A DNA stretch of 64,000 bases. Source: Bifidobacteriaceae bacterium (GTDB lineage Bacteria; Actinomycetota; Actinomycetes; Actinomycetales; WQXJ01). The notes below the pieces were generated by a model, which saw only the letters and a program-made list of their open reading frames with translations, was not told the origin of the DNA and searched no databases. This document shows positions 5,996 through 51,624 of this stretch, piece after piece. The stretch lies in the NCBI GenBank assembly GCA_031281585.1, contig JAITFE010000060.1:26782-90781 (forward strand). The letters run 5' to 3'. Numbering within the stretch: the first letter of the stretch is position 1; each line of letters starts with the position of its first letter. Both the position numbers and the translations under genes were made by a program.

Positions 5996-6086
5996 CCATG
6001 CGCCATTGGGCACCGCCTGCGGCGGCTCCGCTGGTCGGTGCCCGCCTGCGCCGCCGGCGTCAGCCGTCGCGCCTGCGGCGGCCTCC

Positions 6087-22682: not shown

Positions 22683-22949
22683 GGCGCGGTGTCCCGCGTC
22701 CGCGTCGAGCGCCCCGGTGGCTGTTGATGTGGCGCCGCCAGCATAAGCAGCCGGGGCGGGTCGAAGCCCGCTTGAGCGTTCTCAGGCCCACCAGTTGAGA
22801 ACCGCCGATGCCGTCCACGGGCCAGGCGCTGAGCCCGCCGCGCCGTTCACGCCGGGAGGCTCGCCGCCGGAGGTTCGCCGCCGGCCGCCGCTCCGGGGCG
22901 GGGCCGTTTGGGCGGCCACTTTCGTCGCTGGACTCGGCACCGGCCGCCG

Positions 22950-23080
22950 GCCCCTCCGCTCAACCCTCCCGAACGCCCCCTTCGGGCCGCCCGGCCCAAC
23001 CAGCAGACGCGGACCCGCCGCCCCACCGCCGACCCCTCCGCTCAACCCTCCCGAACGCCCCCGTTGGGCCCGCCCGAGCC
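22950..23080. repeat. Direct repeat, about 73-bp unit, 2 copies
   Basis: CCCCTCCGCTCAACCCTCCCGAACGCCCCC..GGGCC.GCCCG occurs at about 22958 and about 23031, between the mshA stop and the giant-gene start. Confidence 0.7.
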
Positions 23081-31204: not shown

Positions 31205-31416
31205 TCGGCTTCCTCAAGCCAACCTTGAGACCTGCTAACAAGCCGCATGCTCATACACATATATTACTCCCACGCAGCCTCGGCGTCAATACTCCGAACC
31301 AAGAAACCCGGCCCGAAAAGGAGACCCTTCCGAGCCCTCCCGCAGCACGGCCCGAGGAGGGGCCAAAGGGTGACCAGACGGCATCGGCGGACATGTCAAC
31401 AACCTAAACCAAACCT

Positions 31417-31668
31417 CTGACAACGAAATGACCAGCCAAAACGCCCCACAACGGAAGCGTCGACGCACGCCACGACCAACCGCACGCCCACCCGCCCCAA
31501 GGCCCGCCACACAGTTTGATGCCGACCGGGCGCACAATCCCGACGCGCGGCCTGCCCCACCGCCGCACCAACGAGGAGGCGGCTCCATGAGGGAACCAAA
31601 GCACGCCGACGGCCACGGCAGCCAACCTATTCCCCAGGTCTGACAACGAAATGACCAGCCAAAACGCC
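31417..31668. repeat. Pair of direct repeats (30-bp perfect core, about 45 bp with flanks) 222 bp apart
   Basis: TCTGACAACGAAATGACCAGCCAAAACGCC occurs at about 31417 and about 31639, and the flanks CAACCTA... are partly shared. A (GGCAAGCCC)x3 microsatellite follows at about 31719-31750. Confidence 0.7.
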
Positions 31669-31897
31669 GCGCCACAGGGTCCCGCGAGTCAGGCGGCGAC
31701 GCCTCCAAACAGCCCGGCAAGCCCGGCAAGCCCGGCAAGCCCGGCCAGCGCGGCGCGAACCGGCCCAGGGGGCACAAGGGCACAGGGGCTAGACGGGGCC
31801 AGTTGCCCCGCTCGGCTCCAAAGCCAGGGAGGCTTGTGCAGCCGATGCAGGAGCTAGACGGGCCAGCTGCCCCGCCCAGCGCCTGATCAGAGCCCGT

Positions 31898-33110: not shown

Positions 33111-33242
33111 GGATTGGGCTTCTCGCAAGGCAGTCGGTGCCCTACCCCGTGCCCGGTGGAACCACGCCGCGACGGTATCGGACCACAGGCCGCGCGGTTC
33201 CCCAATGTGCGATTTTGGTGGGTTCTGTGTTATCCTGTGCGA

Positions 33243-34076
33243 GTGAGCGCATTGTTGGCCGCGCAGCGCCAGACTCGCATTCTGGACCGGCTGCGGGCCG
33301 CCGGGGCGGTCAGGGTGGCGGATCTCACCTCCGAACTGGGCGTCAGCGAGATGACGGTCCGGCGGGACATCGACCAACTGGCGGCCTGGGGGCTGTGCCG
33401 CAAGGTCCACGGCGGCGCCTGCCTGAACGCCAGCACCTCGGAGGAGCCGGGCTTCGCGGCCAAATCGGGCGCCAATTTGGAGGCGAAACGGGCGATCGGG
33501 CGCGCGGCGGCGGCGCTTGTGCGCCCGGGCCAGGCGGTCGGCATCGGCGGCGGCACCACCACCTACTGGGTGGCTGTCGAACTGGCCCGGCGGCCGGACA
33601 TAGGCCAGATCACGGTGGTGACCAACTCGCTCCCGGCGGCTGAGGCGCTGGATGACGCCACCCCCGAAGCCCTCCTGGCCACACGCGGCGCCGCCAGGCC
33701 CGAAGCCGGGACCGCCGGCGGCCAGGTCATCCTGACCGGCGGGGTCCGCACACCCTCGCAGGCGCTGGTCGGCCCCATCGCGGACCTCAGCCTCAGCCAG
33801 CTACGCCTCGACTGGCTCTTCCTGGGCGTCCACGGGCTAGACCCCGAGGCGGGCCTGACCACCCCCAACCTGGCCGAGGCCGCGACGGACCGCGCCTTCA
33901 TGAAAGCGGCCCGTGCGACCGTGGTCACAGCGGACGCCTCCAAATGGGACGCCACCGCGCTGGCCCAGATCGCGCCGCTGGCGCGGATCACCCACCTAGT
34001 CACCGACGCCACCCCAGGGCGAGAAGCCGCCACAGCCGTCAAGCGGCACCACATTGACCTGACCATTGCGACTTGA
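33243..34076 (+). CDS. DeoR/GlpR-family transcriptional regulator (likely galactose operon regulator)
   Basis: It has an N-terminal HTH (RQTRILDRLRAAGAVRVADLTSELGVSEMTVRRDIDQL) and a DeoR C-terminal sugar-binding domain. I place the start at the GTG at 33243, with an alternative GTG at 33237. The ORF-track start at 32550 reads through the repeat array. Confidence 0.85.
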   Translation: MSALLAAQRQTRILDRLRAAGAVRVADLTSELGVSEMTVRRDIDQLAAWGLCRKVHGGACLNASTSEEPGFAAKSGANLEAKRAIGRAAAALVRPGQAVGIGGGTTTYWVAVELARRPDIGQITVVTNSLPAAEALDDATPEALLATRGAARPEAGTAGGQVILTGGVRTPSQALVGPIADLSLSQLRLDWLFLGVHGLDPEAGLTTPNLAEAATDRAFMKAARATVVTADASKWDATALAQIAPLARITHLVTDATPGREAATAVKRHHIDLTIAT

Positions 34077-34085
34077 AAGACAACC

Positions 34086-35318
34086 ATGAGCATCCGCATC
34101 ACGCCCACCCACCTGGCCGACGGCCGCGAGTTCTTCTATTTCGACGATTCCCCCGGCTACGCCTCGGGGGACAAGACCAGGCGCTTGGACGACCCGCGCC
34201 CGCTGGCCGACCGCACGCAGCCGTTCACGGACCCGGCGACCGGCCTGACGGTCAACCCAACCGCGCCGGAAATGCGCCTCGACATGCTCACGGGCGAATG
34301 GATCCCAATGGCGTCGAACCGCATGAACCGGACGTTCCAGCCGGCCGCCGACTCGTGCCCGCTCTGCCCCGCGCAGCCCGGCTCGTTCTACCAGGACGGC
34401 GAGATCCCGGACATCGACTATGACGTGGTGGTCTTTGAAAACCGCTTCCCCTCGTACTGGCGGCTGCCCGGCGAAGGCGTCCACGCCGAGCGGCTCCAGG
34501 ACGGCCAAGGGCTCTGGCGCCAGCGCCCGGCGGCGGGCCGGTGCGAGGTGATCTGCTTCTCCCCGTACCACACCGGCCAGGTGGCGACGGTGGGCCCGAC
34601 CCGCATGCGGACCATCATCGAGGCTTGGGCCGTCCGCACCGACGCGTTGCAGAAGATGGACGGCATCTCGCAGGTCTACCCCTTCGAGAACCGCGGCCCG
34701 GAGATCGGCGTCACCCTGCCGCATCCGCACGGGCAGATCTACGGATACCCGAACATCACGCCCAAGACCGAGGCGATGCTCCGCCAAGCCGCCGCCTACG
34801 AACACGCGACCGGCCGCCATCTGCTCGCTGACACGGTAGCGGCGGAGGCGTCCGGGCCTCGCGTGGTGGCGGAAACCGAGCATTGGGTCGCCTACGTGCC
34901 GTACGCCGCCCGCTGGCCGGTGGAAATGCATTTGGCCCCGCGCGCCGACCACCTTGACCTGCCGTCCCTGACCGCGCCGGAACGCGACGACCTGGCGGTC
35001 CTCTACCCCCGCTTGCTGCGCGGACTGGACCGCTTCTTCCTGGACGAGGACGGCAACCCGATCCCCCTCCCGTACATCTCCGGCTGGCACCAGGCGCCAA
35101 CCGACCCGGCCGTCCGCCGCCTGGGCCGTCTGCACCTCCAGTTGTTCTCGATCCGCCGCGCGCCCGGCAAGCTCAAGTACCTGGCCGGGTCCGAATCCGG
35201 CATGGGCGCCTGGATTTCCGACACCACGCCGGAGCGGATCGCCGACCGGTTGCGCGCCGCGTTGGCCGAGTCGGACGCGCTCGCCCAGGCCAGCCGGCCC
35301 GAAGGCCGTCAGCCATGA
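34086..35318 (+). CDS. galT: Galactose-1-phosphate uridylyltransferase
   Basis: 410-aa ORF with the active-site motif LPHPHGQIYGYP. Its end overlaps the galK start by 4 nt. Confidence 0.9.
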   Translation: MSIRITPTHLADGREFFYFDDSPGYASGDKTRRLDDPRPLADRTQPFTDPATGLTVNPTAPEMRLDMLTGEWIPMASNRMNRTFQPAADSCPLCPAQPGSFYQDGEIPDIDYDVVVFENRFPSYWRLPGEGVHAERLQDGQGLWRQRPAAGRCEVICFSPYHTGQVATVGPTRMRTIIEAWAVRTDALQKMDGISQVYPFENRGPEIGVTLPHPHGQIYGYPNITPKTEAMLRQAAAYEHATGRHLLADTVAAEASGPRVVAETEHWVAYVPYAARWPVEMHLAPRADHLDLPSLTAPERDDLAVLYPRLLRGLDRFFLDEDGNPIPLPYISGWHQAPTDPAVRRLGRLHLQLFSIRRAPGKLKYLAGSESGMGAWISDTTPERIADRLRAALAESDALAQASRPEGRQP

Positions 35319-36661
35319 GCGACCCGCGCTTCTTCGAGGCTTGGAGCCCCGCCGAAGGGGCCGCCCGCGCGGATCAGGGGTTCCGCGCCCGGTTCGGCTC
35401 CGCGCCCGCCGGCGTTTGGGCCGCCCCCGGCCGCGTCAACCTGATCGGCGAGCACACCGACTACAACGGCGGCCTCTCGCTGCCCATCGCGCTCCCCCAC
35501 CGCACCTACTTCGCGGCCTCCCCCTCCGGCTCCGACAACGCCCGGCTCACCTCCGCCCAAGCCGCCGATGCCGTCTTCGAGATTCCCATGGCCCGTGTTG
35601 CCCCCGGCGCCGTCAAGGGTTGGGGCGCCTACGCCGTGGGCGTCCTGTGGGCGCTCCGCCTCCGCGACCTGCCAGCCCCCGCCCTGACCGGCCACGTCGA
35701 TTCGTGCGTGCCGCTGGGTGCGGGGCTGTCGTCATCGGCGGCGTTGGAGGCGGCCGTCGCCTTGGCGGCGACCGACTTGGGCGGCGGGTCCGGCGCCGGG
35801 TCGGTGGTTGACGGCGTTGTGTCTTCCGCCGGTTTTGGAGGCTTGCCCGATGCCGTGGGGGCGGTTGACGGCATCGGCGGCGTTGGGGTCTTCGCCGCCC
35901 GGAGCCTTGGCGGTGCGGGCGGGCCTGCTGGCGGCGAACGCGCGCGGCGGGCAATTCTGGCCGCGGCCTGCGTGGATGCCGAGAACCGGATCGCGGGCGC
36001 GCCGACCGGCGGGATGGACCAGGCGGCGGCGCTGCTTGCGGCGGAGGGCCACGCGCTGCTGGTCGACTCGACCAGCGGGGCGAGTGAACTGGTCCCGTTC
36101 GACCTGGCGGCGGCCGGGCTGGAACTGCTGGTGATCGACACCCGCGCCAAGCACGCGCTGGTGGACGGCCAGTACGGCGAGCGCCGGGCGACCTGCGAGC
36201 GGGCGGCCGCGGTCTTGGGCGTGGAGAATCTGGGCCAACTGCCGGTGGCGGAACTCCCCGAGGCGATAGCGCGCTTGGGCGGAGCGGACGCGGTGGCGGC
36301 GCGGCGGGTCAGGCATGTTGTCACGGAAATCGACCGGACCAGGCAATTCGTGGGGGCGCTGCGGGCCGGTGAACTGGCGTTGACGGGCCCGCTGATGGAC
36401 GGGTCGCACGCTTCCCTGCGGGACGATTACGAGGTGTCCGCCCCGGAGTTGGACTTGGCGGTGGCGGCCGCCCGCCAGGCGGGCGCGCTGGGCGCGCGAA
36501 TGACGGGCGGGGGATTCGGGGGCTCGGCCATAGCACTGGTCCGGCGGAGCGAATCTGCGACTGTGGCCGCCGCCGTGGCGGCGTCCTTCGCGCGGGCGGG
36601 CTGGAAAACGCCGGTGTTCCTGCTGGCCGACCCGGCTGGCCCGGCCGAGCGTTTGCTGTAA
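35315..36661 (+). CDS. galK: Galactokinase (with a Gly-rich insertion of about 50 aa)
   Basis: It carries GHMP kinase signatures (GRVNLIGEHTDYNGG, GAGLSSSAALEAA, GARMTGGGFGGS). Confidence 0.9.
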   Translation: MSDPRFFEAWSPAEGAARADQGFRARFGSAPAGVWAAPGRVNLIGEHTDYNGGLSLPIALPHRTYFAASPSGSDNARLTSAQAADAVFEIPMARVAPGAVKGWGAYAVGVLWALRLRDLPAPALTGHVDSCVPLGAGLSSSAALEAAVALAATDLGGGSGAGSVVDGVVSSAGFGGLPDAVGAVDGIGGVGVFAARSLGGAGGPAGGERARRAILAAACVDAENRIAGAPTGGMDQAAALLAAEGHALLVDSTSGASELVPFDLAAAGLELLVIDTRAKHALVDGQYGERRATCERAAAVLGVENLGQLPVAELPEAIARLGGADAVAARRVRHVVTEIDRTRQFVGALRAGELALTGPLMDGSHASLRDDYEVSAPELDLAVAAARQAGALGARMTGGGFGGSAIALVRRSESATVAAAVAASFARAGWKTPVFLLADPAGPAERLL

Positions 36662-36729
36662 CCGGCCCGTTTTCGAATCGCCGCCCTCGCATCCGTGCGG
36701 GCGTAGCCGCTCCCCGCTCCCGCGCCGCC

Positions 36730-37100
36730 GAGAGGCGGAATCTGTGCCGCCGGTTCGTCGACTGGTGGGTTTCGTGCCACTCCGACGCCCAGTGGCGGAT
36801 TTTGTTACACCCCTTTCGCCCAGTGGCGGATTGTGTCCGGGCCGGTTGACGTTTGCGCTGGTCAGAAGGGCGGGCCGAACCGAAAGGGGGACATTATCCG
36901 CCACTCGACGCGCCGGAAGGCCCCGGACGGCACAGGAAACGCCATTCGACGTGTTCTGCGGCACAAAATCCACCAGTCGCCGTCCAGTGGCGGATCCTGT
37001 CACACCCCTTTCGCCCAGTGGCGGATTCTGTGCCGCTGGCCCCAAGACTGGCGGATGCTGTGCCGCGCAGCCCGCCGAGTGGACGATTCTGTACGGGCTT
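36730..37100. repeat. Array of at least 10 copies of a roughly 16-20-nt motif (consensus about CAGTGGCGGATnnTGT) in both orientations, about 31-nt phasing
   Basis: Forward copies lie at about 36733, 36761, 36790, 36821, 36985, 37016, 37047 and 37077. Inverted copies lie at about 36891 (ACATTATCCGCCACTC) and about 36955 (CACAAAATCCACCAGTC). The 31-nt unit CAGTGGCGGATTTTGTTACACCCCTTTCGCC is directly repeated. Confidence 0.8.
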
Positions 37101-37244
37101 CCCGATCACCCAGGCCAGCCCGCGCAAGGCACCGCCAGACTTGAAGCGGATTCCTTCGAGGAATGAGCAAGGGCACGGTGTTCTTGCGGGAAGACGCGGC
37201 CGGTTCGGGCGAGCGTTTGCTGTGGCCGCATTAAGATTGATGGC

Positions 37245-37643
37245 ATGGAGGCAACGGAGCTGGAAGTCCTGCCGGGACGTTTTTCGATCGTCAAATTGCC
37301 GAGTGTGGCCCATGCCGCCATTTTGATTGGGCAGCCTGCGTCCCACCCCGCGTTCCTCGCCATCACGGACAAGGAAATCTCACTGGTCTGCCCCTCGGCG
37401 GCGGTGCCGCGCACCGCCGTGGCCCGCGACGACGGCTGGTCTTTGATGCGCCTGCCCGGCGAGTGGGATTTCCGAGTGGTCGGCGTCCTGTCAGCGCTCA
37501 CCACCATCCTGGCCGAGGCGAAAGTCCCTGTCTTCACCGTCTCCACCTTTGACACCGACTACCTGCTGGTGAAATCCGTCAACTTGGAGCGCGCCGCCCG
37601 GGCGCTGAATCAAAGCGGCGTGTCGGTCCACCTCCCAGCCTGA
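37245..37643 (+). CDS. Small ACT-domain protein (ACT_7-like)
   Basis: 132-aa ORF. GRFSIVKLP... and ...VPVFTVSTFDTDYLLVK resemble small ACT_7-type proteins, from memory. Confidence 0.6.
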   Translation: MEATELEVLPGRFSIVKLPSVAHAAILIGQPASHPAFLAITDKEISLVCPSAAVPRTAVARDDGWSLMRLPGEWDFRVVGVLSALTTILAEAKVPVFTVSTFDTDYLLVKSVNLERAARALNQSGVSVHLPA

Positions 37644-37708
37644 TCCGGAACTGTCGCCAACCCAAGGTTGCAGCCGCCTCACGATGCGTGATGCGTTATG
37701 CTTGATGC

Positions 37709-37957
37709 GTGAGAACAACGCTCACGATCGATGACGATGTGCTTGCGGCCGCGAAGGAAATCGCCCACGCCGAGCGCCGAGCCACCGGGGCAGTCCTGTC
37801 AGACCTCGCCAGGGGTCAACTCTTGGCACGCAATTCCGGGGGCAACACCGGGCTTGCCCTGCAACCCGGTCCTTTGGGCTTCCCTGTCCTGCCCTCGCGT
37901 GGCGGGATTGTGACGAATCAGGACGTGGCCAAACTGCGTGATGAACTGGGCATTTGA
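37709..37957 (+). CDS. vapB: Type II antitoxin, VapB family
   Basis: 82-aa ORF with a GTG start. MRTTLTIDDDVLAAAKEIA... is a typical VapB N-terminus. It overlaps the downstream PIN gene by 4 nt. Confidence 0.75.
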   Translation: MRTTLTIDDDVLAAAKEIAHAERRATGAVLSDLARGQLLARNSGGNTGLALQPGPLGFPVLPSRGGIVTNQDVAKLRDELGI

Positions 37958-38388
37958 TGGCGGTCCTCTTGGATGTCAGCGCGCTCATCGCGTTGCTTGA
38001 CCCCGATCACGCCTCCCACCAGACCGTCAACGACTGGATGGCGATCAACTCCCTCGAACGCTGGGCCAGTTGCCCAATCACCGAAAACGGATATGTCCGG
38101 ATCGTTTCCCAGCCCAGCTACCCGCATCCCCTCACAATCGGTCTCGCCTTGGCGGCCCTGACCGCCGCGCGCAATTCGCCTCGCCACGAGTTCTGGCCTT
38201 GCGACATATCCGTGGCCGACGCGCAAAGAGTTGACACGTCTTTGGTGCTCGGCCCGGCCCAGGTCACAGACACGTACCTCCTGGCGCTCGCGGTCGCGAG
38301 ACGCGGACGCTTCGTGACTCTGGACAGACGTGCGTCGTTGGCCGCCGTTCCCGGCGCCACGCGGACCAGTGTCGTGCTCCTTGCCTGA
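37954..38388 (+). CDS. vapC: Type II toxin, VapC (PIN-domain ribonuclease)
   Basis: 144-aa ORF with PIN signatures (LLDVSALIALLDPDH..., TENGYVRI, TDTYLLALAVARRGRFVTLDRR). Confidence 0.8.
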   Translation: MMAVLLDVSALIALLDPDHASHQTVNDWMAINSLERWASCPITENGYVRIVSQPSYPHPLTIGLALAALTAARNSPRHEFWPCDISVADAQRVDTSLVLGPAQVTDTYLLALAVARRGRFVTLDRRASLAAVPGATRTSVVLLA

Positions 38389-38723
38389 CAGGCCGCAAGG
38401 CGTGGCTCTAACTGACCCTCGCGGCCACAGTCTTCTTCCTGGTCCTAACTCCTGCCACTGGCCTTAGTACGTACTTTGGCGGTCGCGTTGGCGGTCGCGT
38501 CGAGGATCCCTTGCGCTTCTCTAATGGTGGGTGGCTGGCCTGAGGCTGGCTGGCCGGGACGCGGCAGACGTGTTCGGGGACGTCGAGTGTGGCACGACAG
38601 GTGATCAATGTGGGCCCCTTCGGGGGAAGACGGACGGTAACAAGACCAGCTTCCCGATGGGGGGCCCGCATCCGGTCACGCCACGCCGCGAACCAGCAGG
38701 TCAACCCTCCCGATCAAACACGG

Positions 38724-39956
38724 TCAAAGGGCGCGAAGCGCGGCTGCACCGGCAGTGAAAACAGCCGCGAACCGGTCGCGGCTCTCTGAATCCAGACCGT
38801 GCATGGTCGCTGCGGCAACCCATCGGGCAGACGCGGCGGCGACCTCCCGCGCCGTGACGCGGGCCTGTTCAGCGGTTAGGCCGAAGGCCTGGGCGTGCTC
38901 CAAGAGCGCGGCGGCGCTGCCCGAAGTGTCGAGGGCACCGCCTATCGGCGTGACCCGCGGCTGGCGCGAATCCGGGGTGGGGTTGATGTCGAACGCCGGC
39001 GCCAGCCTCCACCCGGTCCCAGCCCGGAGCAGACCCATGTTCCTGAGGTGGTCATCCGTGTTGTGGACGGCGACCGTGAAGGCGATGCGCCGCCACAGCT
39101 CCGCCAAGTCCCGCGACGGGTCCGCGCTGAGGCGGCCCAACGCCTCGGCGACGTCCAGGTAGTCGGCCTGGGCGGCATCGTCCACCGGCACCGCCGTCAA
39201 CGCGCTGATGTACGGAACGCGGCGGCTGCCCTCCCGGTCGAAGCGGCGGGACAGGAGGACCGAGCGGTCCGCCACGCGCGCTAGGCGTGTCTCGGGGACC
39301 TCTATTCCGGCCTCGGCGGCCAGCGCCAGTCCCACCGCTTCCCACGCCATCACGTCCCAGCGGTCGTGCGAATGGGGGAACTTGGCGATCAGCAGATCCC
39401 GCCCGTCGCTCACCGCGGCTTTGGGCCGGGCCCCGCCCAGGGAAGCGCTGCCAGCGCTTAGCAGCGCTTTCACCGCATCCTCGGCATCTTCTCCCGTCTG
39501 GGTCGCTTGGTCTGCGGCGCGCAACAGCTTGGGCAGTTCGACCAGTTTCGGCACCTGCCGGGCCGGGTGCTGAAACGCGCCGCCCAGGGTGAGCGCGAAG
39601 CGGAGGGCCCCCTGGCGGGTAGCGTCCGAGACGCCCAGCAGATAGTCCTGGTCGGTCAAGCGCCGGGTGGCGCGGCCCCCCTTGCGCGCGACGGCGGCCT
39701 CCCGCTTATCGATGAGCATCCTGCCCCAGCGGTCCGGCGCCGCGTCGAGCAGCGCGCGGGGCAGCGGCCCGGCGGAAGGCCAAGAGCCAGCCATGAGCGG
39801 GATCGCAGGGTCGATCGAGTAAGCGTCAGAGCGTGCCAGGTACGCGGGCTCGTAGCCCAAGACACTGGTCAACCGCCCGCGGCGAACCGAGGTGTAAACA
39901 GTGGCTGCCTTCACGTCGCCGCCGCTCGCCGCCAGATAGACGTGTACCTCGGTCAT
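38724..39956 (-). CDS. hipA: Type II toxin, HipA-family serine/threonine kinase
   Basis: From MTEVHVYL... (start 39956) the product is 410 aa. It has a HipA N-terminal domain (LDAAPDRWGRMLI) and the C-terminal catalytic motif VAVHNTDDHLRNMGLL. The ATG overlaps the hipB stop (ATGA). The part of the ORF upstream of 39956 is rejected. Confidence 0.85.
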   Translation of the reverse strand: MTEVHVYLAASGGDVKAATVYTSVRRGRLTSVLGYEPAYLARSDAYSIDPAIPLMAGSWPSAGPLPRALLDAAPDRWGRMLIDKREAAVARKGGRATRRLTDQDYLLGVSDATRQGALRFALTLGGAFQHPARQVPKLVELPKLLRAADQATQTGEDAEDAVKALLSAGSASLGGARPKAAVSDGRDLLIAKFPHSHDRWDVMAWEAVGLALAAEAGIEVPETRLARVADRSVLLSRRFDREGSRRVPYISALTAVPVDDAAQADYLDVAEALGRLSADPSRDLAELWRRIAFTVAVHNTDDHLRNMGLLRAGTGWRLAPAFDINPTPDSRQPRVTPIGGALDTSGSAAALLEHAQAFGLTAEQARVTAREVAAASARWVAAATMHGLDSESRDRFAAVFTAGAAALRAL

Positions 39957-40255
39957 CGGCGCACCCGCTTCGGAAGCGACTGGTCTGCGCGGGCGCGGCC
40001 CAGGTCCGTCTCGTACGGGTCCGTCGCAAGCACGATGCCGTCCAGCACTCCCAGCCCCGAGGCCACCGAGAGCACCGCGCCCAGGCTCACCCCCAGGTCG
40101 CCGCGCTCCAAACGCCCGAGCGTGCCGCGCGCTATGCCGGCTCTGTCCGCCACCTGCTCGGCGGTCAGGCCGAGCAGCTTCCGCCAGGTGGCGAGTTGCT
40201 GCCCAATGTCGCCGGCGGCCTCTCTGACCATGCGGGTGGGCGGGCGCGAGCTCAT
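39953..40255 (-). CDS. hipB: XRE-family HTH antitoxin (HipB-like)
   Basis: 100-aa ORF with an HTH (LGLTAEQVADRAGIARGTLGRLERG), located immediately upstream of hipA and overlapping it. Confidence 0.8.
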   Translation of the reverse strand: MSSRPPTRMVREAAGDIGQQLATWRKLLGLTAEQVADRAGIARGTLGRLERGDLGVSLGAVLSVASGLGVLDGIVLATDPYETDLGRARADQSLPKRVRR

Positions 40256-40612
40256 GGCTGGCTCCTGTCTTAGAGTGCGAATTTACGACCACAGTACCGC
40301 TTTAGGAGCGAAATATCGACCCTTGGCGCGGATGGGCGGGGCCTGCGGTCAGAACGCGCGGAGCCCCTCCAGTGCGCGAGGCGGCGCCCCGTCTTGGGTC
40401 AGCTTCTCGGGCTCGGGCTCGGGCTTGGGCGGGGCTGTGGCCTGCGGGTTTGCGTTGTTCTGGGGTGTTTTGGGGGCATTAATCTTGGGGTGTGAGACCG
40501 CATATTCGGACGGTGAGGACCGCGTCGAGCGCTCGTGCGGTGCAGATCGTGTGGTCCAAGCCGCGGCGCGGCAGGGGCGTATTCGGGCGGAGGAGCCCGC
40601 AGAACGCGGGAA

Positions 40613-41098
40613 TCAGTCCAAGCCCAGCGTGCGACGCAGGTCCGGCAGCGTGGCCACGCAGGTGAACCGCCCGCCCATGGCGAACTGGAAACCCAGGCGC
40701 TCGCAGAGCGCCGCCGCGCGGTCATTCCTCGCGTGGATCAGCACCGCCCTGACTCCGATCTGGCTGCCCGCCGCCACGGCCCGCCGGACGGCATCGCGAA
40801 CCAACGACGAGCCGACCCCGATCCCCTGGTAATTCGCGTCAACGGCCAACCGAGCCAGCACGACCACGGGGACCCTGCCCGGCATGTCGCCGGGCTCGAC
40901 GGACCCGGCCGCCAGAGCGTAGTAACCCGCCAGTTCGCCGGTCCGGGCCGCGGTGGAGACAAAAGTGCGGCTCGCGCCACGCGCGTCGTTGGCCAGGGCC
41001 CGCTCGCGCAGCCACGCGTCAAGCTCCGGATCCCCGCAGCTGAAGCCAGCCGTAACATCCGATGGCCGAATTGGCCGGGGTGCCGCGAACGCCGTCAT
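40613..41098 (-). CDS. GNAT-family acetyltransferase toxin (TacT/KacT-like)
   Basis: From MTAFAAPRPIRPSDV... the product is 161 aa. It has a GNAT core (LARLAVDANYQGIGVGSSLVRDAV) and the FSCGDPELDAWL motif typical of DUF1778-partnered toxins. Its ATG overlaps the antitoxin stop (TGATG). Confidence 0.8.
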   Translation of the reverse strand: MTAFAAPRPIRPSDVTAGFSCGDPELDAWLRERALANDARGASRTFVSTAARTGELAGYYALAAGSVEPGDMPGRVPVVVLARLAVDANYQGIGVGSSLVRDAVRRAVAAGSQIGVRAVLIHARNDRAAALCERLGFQFAMGGRFTCVATLPDLRRTLGLD

Positions 41099-41370
41099 CA
41101 AGACACCGATGGCTGTTCCATGAACTCGCGCAGACCTGGCAAGACACGGGCCGGATGGTCGATCGCCTCGTTGAACGCCGCCCATTCATCGGGACTGAGC
41201 ACTATCCTCTGCCTGTCCGCGAGGACCTGTTCGGCCCGGTCGACCAGGGCAGACACGGAGAACTCAGTCAGCGTTTGGTCGCCCGTCTGGGCAGCGCGTT
41301 CGATCAATTGCTTCTGGCGTTTGGTCAGACGCACCGCCAGACGCTCGTCTTTAAGGGCCGCGGTCGACAT
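41098..41370 (-). CDS. DUF1778-family antitoxin (TacA/KacA-like, RHH)
   Basis: From MSTAALKDERLAVRLTKRQKQLIERAA... the product is 90 aa, a typical DUF1778 sequence. The ORF-track start at 41406 is an alternative. Confidence 0.8.
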   Translation of the reverse strand: MSTAALKDERLAVRLTKRQKQLIERAAQTGDQTLTEFSVSALVDRAEQVLADRQRIVLSPDEWAAFNEAIDHPARVLPGLREFMEQPSVS

Positions 41371-41471
41371 GGCGCTAGTGTACGCCTGAGCGAACCACAC
41401 TTCCATTGCGCCAAGTTGCGGCCGGCGCCGCCGATAGTTGATCTGCGAGCCGCGTCCGTTCGCGAGGCCCC

Positions 41472-42668
41472 TCAGGAGTGTTCAGCCAAGAATCGTTGCA
41501 TGCTCTCCTCCATCCGGTCGAGTTCCGCCTGGTGCTCAGATATGAACTCGGTCTGGCGGTCTTTCAACGCGGCCGCGTAGCGTTCCACGTAACCAGTCTC
41601 TTGACGGCAAACAAAATCGGCTGCCGCGATATCCCGTTCGGCTTGCGACCCGACCAAAGACTGCTGGACCTCGGGGATGTCTTCGCCGTAGTAGGTCCGC
41701 CCCACCTCCATTATGAACAATTCACCGTCCGGGCCTGTCGACACCGCGACCTCGAACGCGGTCCGCGGAACGGCATATTTCACATCGACTAAGTATTTAG
41801 AAAAGACCTCGCCCATCTCACCGTTGATCAGGCAGTCTTTGAATTCGCGTTTCAGCTCCACGATTTCCGGAAGGTCGTCAACTGACTTCACATCCTCTGC
41901 TTCAGACACCACGGAGGAGTCCTCCGATCCACCAAAGCCAACATCCGACGCGCCGGTTGTCCGGCCCATCGCAATCAGCGGCTCCAGGAAGCTCACGTCC
42001 ACCGAGGCCGCATCAGGGACTTGGGCATAGGCGCGCTCGTAGCAATTCCCCGCGATTGGCGTCGCGCCGGCTTCGTCCTCTTCGGTCAACCCGACAAGCG
42101 CCAAATCGTAGGCCTGTCTTGCGGAATCCGACAAAGACTCGTAATACTCACTGTTCTCGGCCTCTCCTTCGAGCGGACCGGGCTCGAACGCCCCGGTGTA
42201 CTCGCCCATACTCAGAACCCCGTAGCCGACCTTTAGCGTCTCATCCAAAGTGTTGGGAAGCACAGGCACATCCCCAAGCGTGTCACCCGTCAGCGCGTAG
42301 GGGCCATACACATCTTCCGACGCCTCCGCAGGCGGAGTCGGCTCCAGCGGAAAGTAGGTGAATCCGGATTCCTTCATGCACTTGGCGATGATTTGCTGTT
42401 GAGCCCGATAAACATCGTCCCAAGCAGCCTGTTCCACATCCCGCGCTACCGCGACCACGCGTCGAGCGGCCTCATAATACGGCGCGAACGGCAACTCAAC
42501 CGGTGACGGCGAATCCGTCCGAGCGATCGGCAACTCAACCGTTCCGAGCACGACCGCCGAACCGCCGGTGTCCGTGGATACCGGAGCATCCACGGACACC
42601 GGACCTGTACAGGCCGTCACCAAGACCAGCAAGGCGACAGCCAAGACGACGGCCCGGCCAGAATTCAT
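41472..42668 (-). CDS. Hypothetical secreted lipoprotein (no family recognised)
   Basis: 398-aa ORF with signal peptide and lipobox MNSGRAVVLAVALLVLVTAC. The mature protein is acidic. GC content is visibly lower than in the neighbouring genes. Confidence 0.6.
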   Translation of the reverse strand: MNSGRAVVLAVALLVLVTACTGPVSVDAPVSTDTGGSAVVLGTVELPIARTDSPSPVELPFAPYYEAARRVVAVARDVEQAAWDDVYRAQQQIIAKCMKESGFTYFPLEPTPPAEASEDVYGPYALTGDTLGDVPVLPNTLDETLKVGYGVLSMGEYTGAFEPGPLEGEAENSEYYESLSDSARQAYDLALVGLTEEDEAGATPIAGNCYERAYAQVPDAASVDVSFLEPLIAMGRTTGASDVGFGGSEDSSVVSEAEDVKSVDDLPEIVELKREFKDCLINGEMGEVFSKYLVDVKYAVPRTAFEVAVSTGPDGELFIMEVGRTYYGEDIPEVQQSLVGSQAERDIAAADFVCRQETGYVERYAAALKDRQTEFISEHQAELDRMEESMQRFLAEHS

Positions 42669-42856
42669 CGAACCGTCCCAGTATCAGCAATAGTCGGCGC
42701 TCCGACCGGGCTTGGGCTCAGACGCCGCATTGTCGCCGCAAGTGGCGCGCGCATCTTCCCTCGCCCCGCACCCGGCACTTGTGCTTGGCCTGAGTCGTGC
42801 TCGGCCAATACGGCGATGATGATGATGGCGCTCAGGGCCAGCACTGCGAGGAGCAT
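42665..42856 (-). CDS. Possible small single-pass membrane protein
   Basis: 63-aa ORF with one N-terminal hydrophobic helix (MLLAVLALSAIIIIAVLA). It overlaps the lipoprotein gene start by 4 nt. It has no convincing RBS. Confidence 0.25.
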   Translation of the reverse strand: MLLAVLALSAIIIIAVLAEHDSGQAQVPGAGRGKMRAPLAATMRRLSPSPVGAPTIADTGTVR

Positions 42857-43199
42857 GGTAGAAAGCCTTTTGAATCTTTTCGTCTAGTGTGATCCGCTCT
42901 CGAGAGGACGGGAGCTTCATCGGGTTCTGGCCGGAACCGGTCAAAGCCCGGTCGGCCCAGAGGGACGGAACCAACCAGTCGAAGATTACCGGAAAGGCTG
43001 GGGGGTCAACGGGCCGACTAGCGGGGTCGTCTGGCCGGCTTTGGCATAGGTCTCTGCGGGACCTTGCCGCCGTCGCCTTGCACGGGCCAGAAAGGCTTCG
43101 TGAAGGAGGCGATGAGAGACTCCACGCCGGGTTCAGACTGTCAGACCGGCGCCATATGGTTGACCCGACTCAGACAAGCGCTCCCCAGGCAGGTGTCCA

Positions 43200-45023
43200 A
43201 TGTGGTTCGAAGTCGCCAGCGTTGAGGCGTTGGCCCCCGACCAGGCTTCGCTGAAAGCGGGCCGGGGCCTCGCCTCCGCGTCGCGCTGGCCCGAACTCGG
43301 CCACGAGGATTTCGTCATCTGGGGCGAATGCCAGGGGTCCGGCGCGAACCCCTACCAGACCGCCGTCGACACGCGCGACATGGGCTACCGCTGCTCCTGC
43401 CCGTCGCGCAAGTTCCCCTGCAAGCACGCGCTGGCGCTGATGCTGATCGCGGCCGGCCAGCCCGAAGCCGTCCCCCAAGGCGCCACGCCCGAGTGGGTTG
43501 GGCAGTGGCTCGCCCGCCGCCGCAGCCGCAAGGGCGCCAACGCCACCACCCCGCCCATGCCTTCCGGACCGTCCCAGCCGCCAACCCCCGAGCGCGCGCC
43601 AGGCACCCCACCACCGCCGATGCCGTCCGGACCGTCCCAGCCGCCAACCCCCGACCAGCCCGCGCCCGGTACCCCGCCAAATGGCCAGCCAGGCACCCCA
43701 CCGCCGATGCCGTCCGGATCGTCCCAGCCGCCAACCGCCGATCAGCCCGCGCCCGGGACACCGCCGCACGGCCGGTCGGGCGTTCCTCAGTCGCCTGCGG
43801 GGCCGGGTTCGCCCAGTTCGGGTCCGCGCGCGGCCAGCGGCGGCGACGCCAGGGCGGGCGCGGCGGACGCCAAGAGCGCGGCCAAACGGGCGGCGGCCCA
43901 GGCCGTCATCGCCGAAGGCCTGGAAGAATTGGACGATTGGGTCGCCGACCAGTTGCGTTTGGGTTTGACCCGGCTGATGGCGGAGGCGCCTGAACGGTGC
44001 CGGAGAATCGCCGCCCGGTTGGTAGATCACAAGGCGACGGCGTTGGCTTCGCGGCTTGACGAACTGCCCGCCCGCCTCCTCGCCCTGCCCGCACCCGAAC
44101 GGGCGCATCAGCTTGTCCGCGAATTGGGCACGGTGGTCCTGTTGGTCCGCGCTTGGCGGCTCGACCCAGACGCGCCCCACATCGCCAGAGCGGTCGGCGC
44201 GGCGGAGACACGGGCGTCCGTGCTGGCCAACCCCGATTGCCTGAGAGTCATGAGCGTCTGGGAAGTCCTCGGCAGCCGCGTCTTCACGCGCCGCGACCGC
44301 CTGGTCTCGCACGCCACCTGGCTGCTCAACCTGGGCGAAGGGCCGCCGTGGGCGTTGCTGCAGGACTACTACCCGGTGTCGGCGGGGACTCATCCGGGGA
44401 CCATGCCCGCCGGACGCCAGGTCGCCGCCGAATTGGTCTACTACCCCGGCGGGGTCCCCACCCGCGCGGTGGTCGCCGTCCAAGAACCCATTTCAGAACG
44501 TCTGCCGTGGCCGGTCACGGGCCCACCCTTGGCGGCGCCGGAAGCGGCCAATCCAAGCCGGTTGCTTACGGCGCCCGCTCAAAGCGTGATCGCCGCGGAT
44601 CCGGTGTCGGGGCCTGCCTCCGCCACCGGCCAAGCCGCCCAGGCTCCGGGCGGAGGGGATCCGCTGGCCGATTGCCTCGCGCTTTGGGACGCGGAGCCTT
44701 GGGAATTGGAAACGCCGGTCCTGTTGGGGCCCGGCTGGCCTAGGGGCCGGGCGATCGGCGAAGGCGGGCCGGCACCAGCTTCCCCCGGTCGAGCCCAACC
44801 CAAGCCGGGCGGCGCCGGCCCGGCCGGGTCTTCTTTTGCGCGGGTGGTTGAAGGCGGGCCCAGCGGGCAGCTTTGGTGGGACGGCGGCCAGGTCGCCTTG
44901 CCGCTGGCGCGGGCCCTGCCCTCGCCCCTGGTCGGGTCACCTCTGAACGCTTTCGGCGTCTGGGACGGCGCGCGCCTGGACCTGTTGGCGGCACAGAGCC
45001 CGTTTGGGCCGGTGAGGCCGTGA
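43200..45023 (+). CDS. SWIM zinc-finger domain protein (gene 1 of a five-gene operon)
   Basis: 607-aa ORF with the SWIM CxCx(n)CxH motif (YRCSCPSRKFPCKHALALML) near the N-terminus. A Pro-rich repeat insertion follows at aa about 115-195. Confidence 0.85.
   Translation: MWFEVASVEALAPDQASLKAGRGLASASRWPELGHEDFVIWGECQGSGANPYQTAVDTRDMGYRCSCPSRKFPCKHALALMLIAAGQPEAVPQGATPEWVGQWLARRRSRKGANATTPPMPSGPSQPPTPERAPGTPPPPMPSGPSQPPTPDQPAPGTPPNGQPGTPPPMPSGSSQPPTADQPAPGTPPHGRSGVPQSPAGPGSPSSGPRAASGGDARAGAADAKSAAKRAAAQAVIAEGLEELDDWVADQLRLGLTRLMAEAPERCRRIAARLVDHKATALASRLDELPARLLALPAPERAHQLVRELGTVVLLVRAWRLDPDAPHIARAVGAAETRASVLANPDCLRVMSVWEVLGSRVFTRRDRLVSHATWLLNLGEGPPWALLQDYYPVSAGTHPGTMPAGRQVAAELVYYPGGVPTRAVVAVQEPISERLPWPVTGPPLAAPEAANPSRLLTAPAQSVIAADPVSGPASATGQAAQAPGGGDPLADCLALWDAEPWELETPVLLGPGWPRGRAIGEGGPAPASPGRAQPKPGGAGPAGSSFARVVEGGPSGQLWWDGGQVALPLARALPSPLVGSPLNAFGVWDGARLDLLAAQSPFGPVRP
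43540..43790. repeat. In-frame tandem repeat inside the SWIM gene (units of 63 and 87 bp, about 3 copies)
   Basis: CGCC(C/G)ATGCC(T/G)TCCGGA.CGTCCCAGCCGCCAACC recurs at about 43551, 43614 and 43701. It encodes PPMPSGPSQPPTP.. three times. Confidence 0.85.
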
Positions 45024-46585
45024 ACGCCAACGCCAACCGGCCGCCAGCCGACCTGGGCGGCATGAGCACCAGGTCGGAGAAAGCGACCGCCGCGACCGAA
45101 TTGGCCAACGCCTATGCCGCCATGGTCGAGTGCTGGGTGGTTGGCGGCGAGGCCCGGCCTCTGGCCCCGCCGGAATGGGTCCGACTCGCAGCCGACCGGG
45201 AGCCGGCCGCCGTCGAACGCGGCCTGTTGGCCCTGGCCGCGCAGTTCGCCGCCGTGGCCCTGCGGCCGTCCCTGCCGGCCGGGGCCGCGCTCCGGACTCC
45301 GCTGCCCCTGCTGGCGGCCCCCGCGCTGCCGGAGCGCCTCCGGCCCCTGCTCCGATCCGCGCTCGCGGCGTGCCCCAGCCCGCAGGCGGTCATCCGCCTG
45401 ACGGCCCGGCGCGGGTTCGCGGTCAACCCCGCCGACTGGTTCCCGCCCACTGACGCCGACGGCGTCCCCGGTTTGTACTTGCCCTGGATCGCCTGGGCGC
45501 AGGACCAGCGCCAAACGGCAGACGCGGCCCAGAGCGACCAAGCCGAGGCGCCGGCCGGCGCCCGCGACTGGCGCCTCATGGCGCCCGCCGAACTCGAAGC
45601 GGCCCTGCGGGAGCTGCGCCGGACAAACCCCGCGGAATCGCGCGCCGTTCTCCGGGATCAGTTCAAGCTTCTGAGCGCGCCGCGCCGGGCCGCCCTCATG
45701 AAAGTGCTGGAGGTCAACTTGGCCGCAGAGGACGAAGAGTTGCTCGCAGAGTTGAGCCAGGACCGCTCGGCGGCCGTCCGGAGCCAGGCGGAGTTGTGCC
45801 TGGCCCGTTTGGGCAAGGCGGACAATTCGACAACCGCCAACGGTTTGGCGGCCTTCTTCAGGATCACGAGCGCCGGGCTAGCCCGCAAACGGCCGGTCGT
45901 CACCGCTTTGCCGCTCAAGATAATCCAGTCTGCCGAACTGCGCGCCGAAATGTTCCAGAAGGTCACGCTGCCTCAGTTGGCCGGGGCCCTTGGGTTCGGG
46001 CCGGACGAACTGGTCCGGGCCTGGGACCCGACCCCAGACAAGGGCGAGCCCACGCCCGCAAATGAGGCGGCGAACCGGGACTTCGTGGCGCTGGTGGCCC
46101 GGACCGGATCGGACGCGCAGGCCGAGGCTTTGGCGCTGAAGCTGATCCGGCAGAAACCGACCAGCGTCCTGGCCGTGGGACTGCTGGAACGCCTCGACCC
46201 GGCCGCGGCCGCCAAGACCGCGCTGGCCAATCTGCGAGCCGCAACCGATGTGGTGGTGACGCTGGCGAGCGCTAACGACCAAGACGTCATCGTGCACGGC
46301 GAGGTGGCCAAACTGGTGCCTGGCAAGGACTACCTTGACGGCCTGGCCGGCGTGTGGGAAAGCCGAGACCTGGACAAAACGCGCCGTCTGGCCGCCCTGG
46401 GCACCATGATGACGGCCTCGGCCGCCGAACACGCGCTCGAAGACCTGACCGCGCGTGGAGCCCACCGGGCCATGCCCGCGCTGGCCACGCTGGTCCTGAA
46501 CGCAGCCCTCGCGGGCCAGGCCCAACGAGGCGGCCCCGCCCCGCTTCCGCCCGCCGATCCCTCCAACCAAGGAGCCAATCCATGA
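45020..46585 (+). CDS. Conserved hypothetical protein (DUF5691-like; gene 2 of the operon)
   Basis: I place the start at the GTG at 45020, which forms GTGA with the SWIM gene stop. The product is 521 aa, Ala/Leu-rich and helical. The DUF5691 label is inferred from its position in this conserved gene set and has not been verified. Confidence 0.65.
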   Translation: MNANANRPPADLGGMSTRSEKATAATELANAYAAMVECWVVGGEARPLAPPEWVRLAADREPAAVERGLLALAAQFAAVALRPSLPAGAALRTPLPLLAAPALPERLRPLLRSALAACPSPQAVIRLTARRGFAVNPADWFPPTDADGVPGLYLPWIAWAQDQRQTADAAQSDQAEAPAGARDWRLMAPAELEAALRELRRTNPAESRAVLRDQFKLLSAPRRAALMKVLEVNLAAEDEELLAELSQDRSAAVRSQAELCLARLGKADNSTTANGLAAFFRITSAGLARKRPVVTALPLKIIQSAELRAEMFQKVTLPQLAGALGFGPDELVRAWDPTPDKGEPTPANEAANRDFVALVARTGSDAQAEALALKLIRQKPTSVLAVGLLERLDPAAAAKTALANLRAATDVVVTLASANDQDVIVHGEVAKLVPGKDYLDGLAGVWESRDLDKTRRLAALGTMMTASAAEHALEDLTARGAHRAMPALATLVLNAALAGQAQRGGPAPLPPADPSNQGANP

Positions 46586-47661
46586 CCGACATCATCCGTG
46601 AAACCCCGGAACAGGCCTACGCCGCCGAACTGGCGTTGCTCCACGCCGCCGACCAGGGCGAACGGCCCACCGGCTGGAAACTGACCCCCAGGGCGGTGCT
46701 GACGTACCTGCTGGGTGGCGCCGCGCCGGACGGGACCGCCATCACGCCGAAGTACGTCGGCAGCCGTCGGCTGATGGAGACCGCGGTCGCCACGCTGGCG
46801 ACGGACCGCGCGCTGTTGCTGATGGGGGTGCCGGGCACGGCCAAGTCGTGGGTGTCGGAGCATCTGGCGGCGGCGATCTCCGGCGACTCGACGCTGCTGA
46901 TCCAATGCACCGCCGGCACCGACGAATCCCAGATCCGTTACGGCTGGAACTACGCCCAACTGCTGGCCCACGGGCCCAGCGAGGACGCCCTGGTGGCGAC
47001 ACCGCTGATGAGGGCCATGCGGGAGGGCGCCATCTGCCGGTTGGAGGAGTTCACGCGGCTCGGCTCGGACGTGCAGGACACGCTGATCACGGTGTTGAGC
47101 GAAAAGGTGCTGCCCATCCCGGAGCTCGGCACGTCCCTGCCGGCGCGGCGCGGCTTCAACGTGATCGCCACCGCGAACAACCGCGACAAGGGGGTCAACG
47201 AGCTTTCGTCGGCGCTGAAACGGCGGTTCAACGTGGTGGTGTTGCCCCTGCCGGACTCGTTGGAGGAGGAGGTGTCGATTGTGTCGCGGCGGGTCAAGGA
47301 ACTCGCCCAAGACCTGGCCTTGCCGGTGCCGCGCGGCGTCGAAGAGCAGATCAAGGCGGTCTTGACCATTTTCCGCGAACTCAGGTCCGGGGCCACGGCG
47401 GACAACAAAATCACGATCAAGACCCCGTCCGGCACGCTCTCCACCGCCGAGGCGATCGGAACCCTGGTCGGAGGCCTCTCCCAGGCCGCGTGGTTCGCGG
47501 ACGGGAAGCTGGGCGCCCGCGAGTTGGCCGCGCCCATGGTCGGGGCGATCGTCAAAGACCCCGTGCAAGACAAAGCCGTGCTGGAGGAGTACCTGGAGAC
47601 GGTCCTGAAGAAGCGCCGCGCCTACGCGCAGTACTACAGCGAACTGGGCGAGGCCCTTTAG
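46582..47661 (+). CDS. AAA+ ATPase, MoxR/CbbQ-NorQ (AAA_5) type (gene 3 of the operon)
   Basis: The ATG at 46582 is preceded by AAGGAG and overlaps the upstream stop (ATGA). It has Walker A (LLMGVPGTAKS), Walker B (ICRLEEF) and ...FNVIATANNRDKGVNELSSALKRRF, which is typical of CbbQ/NorQ-like ATPases. Confidence 0.85.
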   Translation: MTDIIRETPEQAYAAELALLHAADQGERPTGWKLTPRAVLTYLLGGAAPDGTAITPKYVGSRRLMETAVATLATDRALLLMGVPGTAKSWVSEHLAAAISGDSTLLIQCTAGTDESQIRYGWNYAQLLAHGPSEDALVATPLMRAMREGAICRLEEFTRLGSDVQDTLITVLSEKVLPIPELGTSLPARRGFNVIATANNRDKGVNELSSALKRRFNVVVLPLPDSLEEEVSIVSRRVKELAQDLALPVPRGVEEQIKAVLTIFRELRSGATADNKITIKTPSGTLSTAEAIGTLVGGLSQAAWFADGKLGARELAAPMVGAIVKDPVQDKAVLEEYLETVLKKRRAYAQYYSELGEAL

Positions 47662-47664
47662 CCC

Positions 47665-51592: not shown

Positions 51593-51607
51593 ACCACCCC
51601 GGCGCCA

Positions 51608-51624
51608 CCAGCGCCAGGCGCTGG
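51608..51624. terminator. Short GC hairpin between the convergent vWA and xth genes (weak terminator candidate)
   Basis: CCAGCGCCAGGCGCTGG is a near-perfect palindrome 16 nt after the vWA stop. It has no U-tract. Confidence 0.2.

Follow-up and report, generated by a model that had tools for sequence, protein, structure and literature searches.

A phased, bidirectional array of 25-nt units inserted at a galK/ACT junction: a candidate structured repeat family in an uncultured high-GC actinobacterium

An array of short, helically phased repeats in both orientations lies downstream of galK in an uncultured actinobacterium, within a 64,000-nucleotide stretch (the window) of contig JAITFE010000060.1 from assembly GCA_031281585.1, labelled Bifidobacteriaceae bacterium. 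The source DNA has a GC content of 71%, and its nearest relatives are metagenome-assembled genomes (MAGs) that are also labelled Bifidobacteriaceae bacterium and share about 75-82% DNA identity over common genes, with a best galK match of 72%; no close strains were present in the collections searched. On the left of the array is galK (35315-36661, plus strand; Pfam GalKase_gal_bdg and GHMP kinase domains), the last gene of a galR-galT-galK operon, and on the right, on the same strand, is a gene with a Pfam ACT_7 domain (37245-37643). The initial annotation of this DNA had placed the repeats in the non-coding interval between these two genes, and that placement holds.

The array occupies positions 36726-37097 and consists of 11 copies of a 25-nt unit (consensus CGYCSAGTGGCGGATTNTGTGCCGC), eight forward and three inverted, as delimited by a weight matrix and by inspection; the eight forward copies had been counted correctly before, and one of the three inverted copies had been missed. 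When up to three mismatches were allowed, the pattern CAGTGGCGGATTNTGT matched nine times in the 64 kb, every time within 36730-37092, against a mean of 1.03 matches in shuffled sequences, none of which (0/100) reached nine. A position weight matrix built from the units gives the 11 members 24-37 bits and the next best site in the 64 kb 13.8 bits. The earlier claim of phased short repeats in both orientations is upheld by these counts, and the frequency check proposed with it found the motif at chance level in the rest of the window. The exact 8-mer core TGGCGGAT occurs nine times against 2.36 expected, with six occurrences inside the array. Its single copies at 27831 (minus strand), 33316 (plus) and 57232 (plus), the second of which had been overlooked by the initial annotation, lack extended similarity to the unit and appear to reflect chance.

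The units form three blocks around a unique sequence. The left forward block (36726-36841, plus strand) holds four units (F1 36726-36750, F2 36756-36780, F3 36786-36810 and F4 36817-36841) and is followed by a central non-repeat core (36842-36885), which contains GCGCTGGTCAGA at 36855-36866, a sequence conserved in all three loci at which such arrays are known. Next come the inverted block of three units (36886-36982, minus strand; R5 36886-36910, R6 36927-36951 and R7 36958-36982) and the right forward block of four (36981-37097, plus strand; F8 36981-37005, F9 37012-37036, F10 37042-37066 and F11 37073-37097), with R7 and F8 lying head to head and overlapping by 2 nt. R6 is a variant, GGCGTTTCCTGTGCC. 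Start-to-start steps are 30, 30 and 31 nt in the left block, 41 and 31 nt in the inverted block, where the 41-nt step separates R5 from R6, and 31, 30 and 31 nt in the right block; the 30/31-nt spacing is about three helical turns. An exact 31-nt periodic unit had been reported, and this applies only to a 16-nt core, whereas the spacers between adjacent units differ. The longest exact repeat in the array is the 26-nt ACACCCCTTTCGCCCAGTGGCGGATT, whose second copy is 195 nt away.

Conservation is unevenly distributed along the repeat. At least nine of the 11 units are identical at 14 positions, the 5-6-nt spacers are at background level, and a crude test that ignores relatedness among units rejects uniform column conservation (chi-square 77.8, 29 df, p 2e-6). 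This focusing of conservation in the 25-nt core fits sites of the binding type, and to that extent the earlier proposal of a cooperative-binding array survives; its iteron or partition variant is not supported, since the neighbouring ORFs scanned include neither a Rep nor a Par gene and the array lacks DnaA boxes and AT-rich stretches. The unit is asymmetric, with a 5' tag CGYC (CGTC in four of 11 and CGCC in five, hence nine tagged units) followed by SAS and then by an imperfect stem, UGGCG/UGCCG, around a 7-nt loop. In predicted folds of the unit, a check suggested with the initial annotation, a 5-6-bp version of this stem recurs in about half of 20 units, with z-scores from +0.55 to -3.0 (mean approximately -0.75). 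The array as a whole folds better than shuffled sequences on both strands (z about -5.0 and -3.2; the plus-strand value is -4.97), as would be expected of any set of inverted repeats. Six of the 77 predicted pairs stay paired through changes on both sides, in a comparison of two sequences that carries no statistical power. No promoter-like site and no plus-strand terminator-like site was found within the array.

The array sits in a 564-bp insertion that split an ancestral galK/ACT junction. In two related MAGs, L003 and L006, the galK stop codon lies 9-10 bp before the ACT gene. At the corresponding position in the window there is a decayed remnant of the ancestral galK end (37176-37234, plus strand; TVFLREDAAGSGERLLWPH followed by the old stop at 37232-37234), which ends 10 bp before the ACT ATG, where galK stops in L003 and L006. 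Because the galK end recurs at this ancestral position, the intervening segment was inserted. The remnant contains the second copy of an imperfect 53-bp direct repeat, of which the first copy (36612-36664, plus strand) is the functional galK 3' end, terminating in PVFLLADPAGPAERLL and the present stop codon; 36612-36664 and 37176-37228 are identical at 42 of 53 positions (79%). The insertion thus supplied a replacement for the last 17 codons of galK. To either side of the array the insertion includes a non-repeat part, on the left 36665-36725, which has no similarity to the homologous contig described below (L216) or to the relatives, and on the right 37098-37175, which contains no further units by the objective threshold.

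The displaced gene end may have been kept because it bears the putative -10 element of the ACT gene. A -10-like TAAGAT lies 7 nt upstream of the ACT ATG (37245; feature 37232-37247, plus strand) and overlaps the old galK stop. A TANNNT followed by TG is found 6-8 nt before the ACT ATG at seven of seven loci (the window, L002, L003, L005, L006, L144 and L145), and from this we infer a leaderless ACT promoter. In L003 and L006 the element overlaps the galK stop, such that the gene end doubles as the putative promoter of the next gene. The junction is variable among relatives: L144 carries four copies of a repeat of approximately 58 bp, L145 two copies of a 137-bp repeat, and L005 an inserted SLFN_AlbA_2/HATPase_c_4 gene. 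None of the relatives compared at the galK/ACT junction carries the array motif.

The array region is non-coding. Pfam and PHROG gave no hits for the open reading frames (ORFs) that cross it; a search of 5.8 billion proteins found no homologue of one of them, and another matches only ORFs that cross related arrays, in shifting frames. The repeat periods, at 30, 31 and 41 nt, are only in part multiples of three. The possibility raised earlier, that the array is degraded coding sequence, accordingly failed its own check, with no family hits and no genuine protein homologues. Rfam yielded no family match in the region at gathering or at permissive thresholds, and the region has no tRNA gene. Its GC fraction is 0.64-0.71 throughout, with no AT-rich stretch. 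No rep, par, integrase, transposase or recombinase gene was detected among the window ORFs scanned against Pfam, NCBIfam and PHROGs, and none is listed on L216; the scanned genes are the DeoR-family regulator, galT and galK upstream, and ACT_7, VapBC, HipA, GNAT and lipoprotein genes downstream, beyond which lies a SWIM/MoxR-like AAA_5/DUF5682 cluster.

Homologous arrays exist at other loci. A phmmer search with the spurious ORF 36853-37326 against 1.84 billion representative proteins returned P0241 (E 1e-8) and P0242 (E 3e-4). In both, the unit is translated in three frames (WRIL, ADSV and SGGFC), and the window ORF, P0241 and P0242 share a central block, RWSE..HYPPLD..RHxKRH (the LRWSE signature). 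P0241 is encoded on L216, a 5959-bp contig of 71% GC that shares its sequencing run (SRR14710905) with the window; the L216 array lies between a PadR-family operon and an SBP_bac_3 gene. A matrix scan of L216 located forward units at 4081-4254, three reverse units (4323, 4364 and 4395) and, from 4418 on, further forward units. Window positions 36725-37026 are colinear with L216 4152-4464 (67% identity over 313 nt, E 1e-35), the left forward block aligning with 4152-4278, and the alignment takes in the core GCGCTGGTCAGA, the order of subtypes within the inverted block and the 41-nt step. In P0242, from another metagenome, about six forward units precede the core, after which come three inverted units and then three or four more in forward orientation. 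The order at all three loci is the same, namely forward block, core GCGCTGGTCAGA, three inverted units and forward block; the number of forward units varies between loci and the block order is fixed. These three are the known loci, DNA having been compared for the window and L216, with P0242 read from protein only. The initial annotation's option of a REP-like element or a miniature transposable element with inverted repeats (MITE) gains most, from the same block order at two other loci and from units that resemble weak, CGYC-tagged stem-loops.

Further members were sought in several collections. Searching both elements and the 21-unit matrix against all retrieved loci (blastn and matrix scan) revealed no additional members, and a blastn search of plasmid and phage collections with the intergenic region was likewise without a match. 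Exact two-copy patterns in GTDB representative genomes and JGI metagenomes returned solely unrelated coding or satellite tandem repeats, as did exact one- and two-copy patterns in IMG/VR; these pattern scans could detect exact copies only, and the collections scanned do not include the window's own contig. A contig of the ACT gene from the Logan assembly of SRR14710905 (L001) starts at window position 37002, inside the array. A contig start at this point suggests that short-read assemblies break at the repeats, in which case members of the family would be concealed in public data.

Taken together, the array looks like one copy of a small, previously undescribed structured repeat family in a high-GC actinobacterium. 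Tentatively, and with somewhat less than even confidence, we interpret it as an intergenic repeat element that is lineage-specific, modular and without genes of its own, comparable to BOX, BIME/REP and NIME. The units would be recognition sites for a trans-acting protein, which could line up on one face of the DNA, or else on hairpins formed by single-stranded DNA or RNA. Such an element might spread or persist as a non-autonomous intergenic repeat, selfish or domesticated, in the manner of BOX, BIME/REP and NIME, and could incidentally affect the ACT promoter and the processing of the galK 3' end. We also considered, as a long shot, a gene-less recombination module of about 0.3-0.5 kb, in which phased sites for a trans-encoded recombinase surround a conserved crossover core and the module inserts at gene 3' ends or junctions together with a replacement gene end; it would be the first REP/BOX-like mobile family described in Bifidobacteriaceae-related actinobacteria.

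Several observations weigh against an intergenic repeat element. Only three loci are known, with one copy in the 64-kb window, and the exact-pattern scans of GTDB representatives, JGI metagenomes and IMG/VR produced no members. The 67% identity between the two copies compared would be old for an active mobile element. No terminal inverted repeats or 5'-TG...CA-3' termini were seen by eye, repeat searches gave no short target-site duplication, and no transposase or recombinase gene is found among the scanned window ORFs or listed on L216. To our knowledge, no REP, BOX or MITE insertion has a flanking repeat like the 53-bp one here, which looks more like the attL/attR pair of an integrative element or a junction of homology-facilitated illegitimate recombination. 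REPs lie mostly downstream of genes, whereas the L216 copy is between divergent genes. The single-unit hairpins are weak. Finally, the units are arranged mostly head-to-tail, in blocks of four, three and four with two switches of orientation, whereas REP families favour head-to-head or tail-to-tail dimers (PMC3733652).

The end of a MITE or transposon of the Tn7, Mu or IS21 type was rejected. The outermost units show no TG/CA tips by eye, the conserved head of the unit runs into the would-be flank, and the sole flanking repeat is that of 53 bp. The transposon-end layout (direct within ends, inverted between them) is matched by the array, but the conserved third block, which is forward, is not predicted by such a model.

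Comparison with described repeat systems places the array near several of them. BOX elements of Streptococcus pneumoniae have a modular boxA-(boxB)n-boxC architecture. Like these, the present element is non-coding, intergenic and gene-less, has a fixed module order with a variable number of internal subunits, can form extended secondary structure and is multi-copy; unlike them, it uses the same 25-nt unit in both flanking blocks and, inverted, in the middle, is known from three loci, shows no sequence similarity to BOX and resides in a high-GC actinobacterium. In the Neisseria intergenic mosaic elements (NIME), dRS3 repeats are interleaved with other repeats, and dRS3 also serves as an integration target. 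The resemblance there is that arrays of a short tagged repeat make up large mosaic intergenic regions, and the difference is that our array has no interleaved second repeat family and differs in its orientation pattern and unique core. Plasmid iteron and incompatibility arrays (P1 incC/incA, F and RK2) are bound cooperatively by one protein. They share with this array many copies of an asymmetric site of about 20 nt, helical phasing and, in some cases, both orientations, but the present array lacks a DnaA box, an AT-rich region for unwinding and, among the ORFs scanned, a rep gene; the phasing is three turns instead of two, and the element is chromosomal, gene-less and present at multiple loci. 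REP/BIME sequences are likewise short, GC-rich imperfect palindromes with an unpaired 5' CGTC-type tag in regularly spaced intergenic clusters, here past a gene 3' end. CGTC-tagged REPs have 8-9-bp stems and 4-5-nt loops, occur mostly as head-to-head dimers and include accepted tag variants; no dedicated transposase is known for them, and the survey does not mention Actinobacteria (PMC3733652). By comparison, the stems here are about 5-6 bp with a 7-nt loop and are weak in half of the units, the arrangement is mostly head-to-tail, and, as regards the high copy number typical of REPs, one locus lies in this 64-kb window and two more were reached through spurious ORFs. Lastly, the attL/attR sites of actinomycete integrative elements and prophages resemble the junction in having a direct repeat of about 50 bp over a gene 3' end, an intact gene and the displaced end left as a remnant (PMC2440964), but here there is no integrase gene, the insert is just 564 bp, the repeats are 79% identical and the target is a protein-coding and not a tRNA gene.

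One rival explanation draws on the promoter of galR itself (33206-33245, plus strand), which carries four tandem 10-bp boxes (TGTGCGATTT, TGGTGGGTTC, TGTGTTATCC and TGTGCGAGTG), a -10-like TATCCT (33231-33236) and, at 33243, a GTG that is probably a leaderless start. Orthologous promoters are present in four relatives (L144 786-830, L003 6681-6720, L002 387-426 and L005 approximately 4800-4845). All five have four tandem 10-bp boxes (TGKKNGNTTY) with an invariant skeleton, TGNNNGNTTNTG, overlapping the -35/-10 spacer, and a TATCCT-type -10 that precedes the start codon by 6-7 nt. The arrangement suggests a leaderless promoter that is autoregulated and has a direct-repeat operator.

The array might then be an operator or decoy array for a transcription factor, with GalR as the best candidate and the units acting as auxiliary operators for looping or titration, a reading that we regard as unlikely. 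The 14-nt core of the unit, TGGYGGRTTNTGTG, has one further match in the window, at 33216-33229 across boxes 2-3, between the galR -35 and -10; with a 14-nt matrix this promoter site scores 19.0, the array 15.0-23.7 and the next non-array site 12.4. The skeleton TGNNNGNTTNTG occurs 10 times in the window against 3.97 expected (two in the promoter, five in the array and three elsewhere), and in 69 kb of relatives seven of nine matches fall in galR promoters. There is also precedent: E. coli DeoR forms loops between operators about 600 bp apart and is still active at 5 kb (PMC8053113), and in Bifidobacterium a DeoR-family GalR controls galT/galK (PMC4746261). The E. coli case is paralleled in that a DeoR-family regulator has short tandem boxes in the promoter of its own gene and that a cluster with a similar core lies 3.5 kb away at the end of the operon; on the other hand, 11 distal sites would be unprecedented, the likeness is limited to 14 nt, and the L216 array is not associated with gal genes. 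The comparison is moreover post hoc. The likeness is lost with 16-, 18- and 27-nt matrices, plain local alignment ranks the promoter 256 out of 3165, and a matrix made from the relatives' promoter boxes passes only two of the 11 units, the second half-sites failing to score. A chance match in a trpS gene reaches 17.9, the conserved head of the unit, CGYCSAS, is absent from the promoter, the homologous L216 array lies at the PadR operon/SBP_bac_3 locus, and none of the relatives carries an array of this kind behind galK. The galR operator region, through its 14-nt match, provides a cheap, testable lead to a candidate binder. We consider it distinctly unlikely that the array is instead the relic of an integrative element (prophage-like or resembling an actinomycete integrative and conjugative element, AICE) or of a plasmid, with the 53-bp repeats as decayed attL/attR and the units as arm-type, excisionase or Rep sites left after loss of the interior. 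In its favour, direct repeats flank the insertion and overlap the 3' end of a gene that is reconstituted, L003 and L006 show the empty site, a unique core with repeats in both orientations on each side is reminiscent of an attP layout, and recombination between units could delete an interior. Actinomycete integrative elements recombine at att identity segments that extend over the 3' end of the target gene, which stays functional (PMC2440964). However, neither the insertion, the scanned neighbours nor L216 has an integrase, excisionase or rep gene or pseudogene, and the insert has no credible ORF. Arm-type sites are approximately 10-17 nt, and typical iterons are 17-22 nt and two turns apart, unlike 25-nt units at three turns. 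The region has no AT-rich stretch or DnaA box and no blastn match in the plasmid and phage collections, and the flanking repeats are just 79% identical. The same gene-free block order at three loci argues for a gene-less element over three independent relics.

A function at the RNA level (a leader, a 3' untranslated region or a small RNA), in which the inverted block pairs alternatively with the left or the right forward block to give a switch or a protective structure, is in our view improbable. The region does fold better than shuffles (z -4.97, plus strand), the forward-reverse-forward layout permits two mutually exclusive long hairpins, and at both DNA loci the array is oriented alike and lies 145-250 bp upstream of a gene on the plus strand (for the ACT-domain protein and for an SBP_bac_3-family substrate-binding protein); the six of 77 predicted pairs that keep pairing through two-sided changes point the same way. 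Yet any inverted repeat yields z-scores of this kind, two sequences lack statistical power, there is no Rfam match and no promoter-like or plus-strand terminator-like site in the array, and the ACT gene seems to own a leaderless promoter downstream of it. A neutral, local minisatellite, made by the same process as the other intergenic tandem repeats of this genome and its relatives, is very improbable and is largely refuted because homologous arrays exist at other loci. Other intergenic tandem arrays do occur in the window (917-1353, 5815-6024, 22944-23070 and 60960-61180), as do junction repeats in L144 (four, about 58 bp) and L145 (two, 137 bp). The array differs in that Tandem Repeats Finder does not report it, that it has an inverted block and a unique core, that conservation across the unit is strongly uneven and that its architecture recurs elsewhere. 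Hardly credible at all is a cluster of DnaA boxes, whether origin or titration site, or a degraded coding sequence. This notion came from a likeness of AATCCGCCAC to TTATCCACA and from the long ORFs that cross the region in 71% GC DNA; the array, however, has no match to the DnaA box TTWTCCACA with up to one mismatch (the window has five against 5.8 expected), so that the resemblance to a DnaA box drawn by the initial annotation falls away, and the coding version is contradicted by periods that are not consistently multiples of three, by the lack of Pfam/PHROG hits and by array-ORF matches that are confined to ORFs over related arrays.

The interest of the structured repeat element that we tentatively favour lies in what such families do. 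The REP/BIME, BOX, NIME and Correia families affect transcript stability, termination, promoter activity and genome rearrangement, and how several of them spread is unsolved. If correct, a family with forward/core/inverted/forward order and three-turn phasing would add a distinct type from uncultured high-GC actinobacteria, and the galK/ACT locus, as an unusually clear before/after view of an insertion, could help explain how such elements insert. Should only a few old copies exist, without a binder, the finding would be of local interest only.

Other candidates were tried and rejected. Four more degenerate units suspected by eye (R0, R4', F12 and F13) all fall below the objective matrix threshold; homology between the three unit blocks as blocks is not supported, their best unit-to-unit similarities being out of register; and descent of the unit from the galK 3' end is not supported by local-alignment scores, which do not exceed background. 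Pairs of GGCGGATT at 51574 and 51666 lack extended similarity to the unit. A CRISPR array was dismissed on account of spacers of 5-6 nt, mixed orientation and the absence of a cas gene among the scanned ORFs. The 398-aa ORF 41472-42668, considered as a Rep protein, begins with a signal sequence of the lipoprotein type and gave no family hits. The ACT protein was considered as a DNA binder; its nearest solved structures are Atu0741 and the CASTOR ACT domains, and no matched chain is named as DNA-binding. The metagenome contig L097 (Ga0268261_10201359) shares 17 nt, CAGTGGCGGATTGTGTC, with unit F4, which we take as a coincidence from the pattern search; its positions 680-1400 form a eukaryote-like transposon of 41% GC with (AT)n flanks, in which a 33-bp satellite is repeated more than 20 times. 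Outside the array, the site most like a unit, TCTTCGACTGGTTGGTTCCGTCCCTCT (42959-42985, minus strand; 13.8 bits, about 81% identical to unit F2), lies in low-GC intergenic DNA between the lipoprotein and SWIM genes and could be a solitary degenerate unit or chance.

Some features of the neighbourhood deserve mention in their own right. Approximately 14 kb (37644-51815) separate the ACT gene from an Exo_endo_phos gene that adjoins it in relatives, and this segment contains VapBC, HipA, GNAT, lipoprotein and a SWIM/DUF5691/AAA_5 (MoxR-like)/DUF5682 cluster; a HipBA pair occupies the same spot in L145. No att-like duplications were found at the ACT-to-Exo_endo_phos insertion or in the relatives' inserts. 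Just upstream of vapB, the heptamer GATGCGT is present in four tandem copies (37683-37712), probably an antitoxin operator. In L005, two copies of a 36-nt element with the palindrome CAGAGTGCGAATTTCGCACTCTG (9820-9935) precede the gene inserted at the galK/ACT junction and look like an operator, and in L144 the junction repeat unit of about 58 bp comprises a T-run and two hairpins. The window is unusually rich in intergenic tandem repeats (a further one is at 31400-31675), with units of 70-223 bp, 63-93% identity and a different sequence in each. Finally, a single 5531-aa ORF spans 6087-22682 on the minus strand and has many internal repeats of about 55-71 nt, of the GTTGCCGTTGGCGTCCCGCA type; it probably encodes a giant repetitive surface protein.

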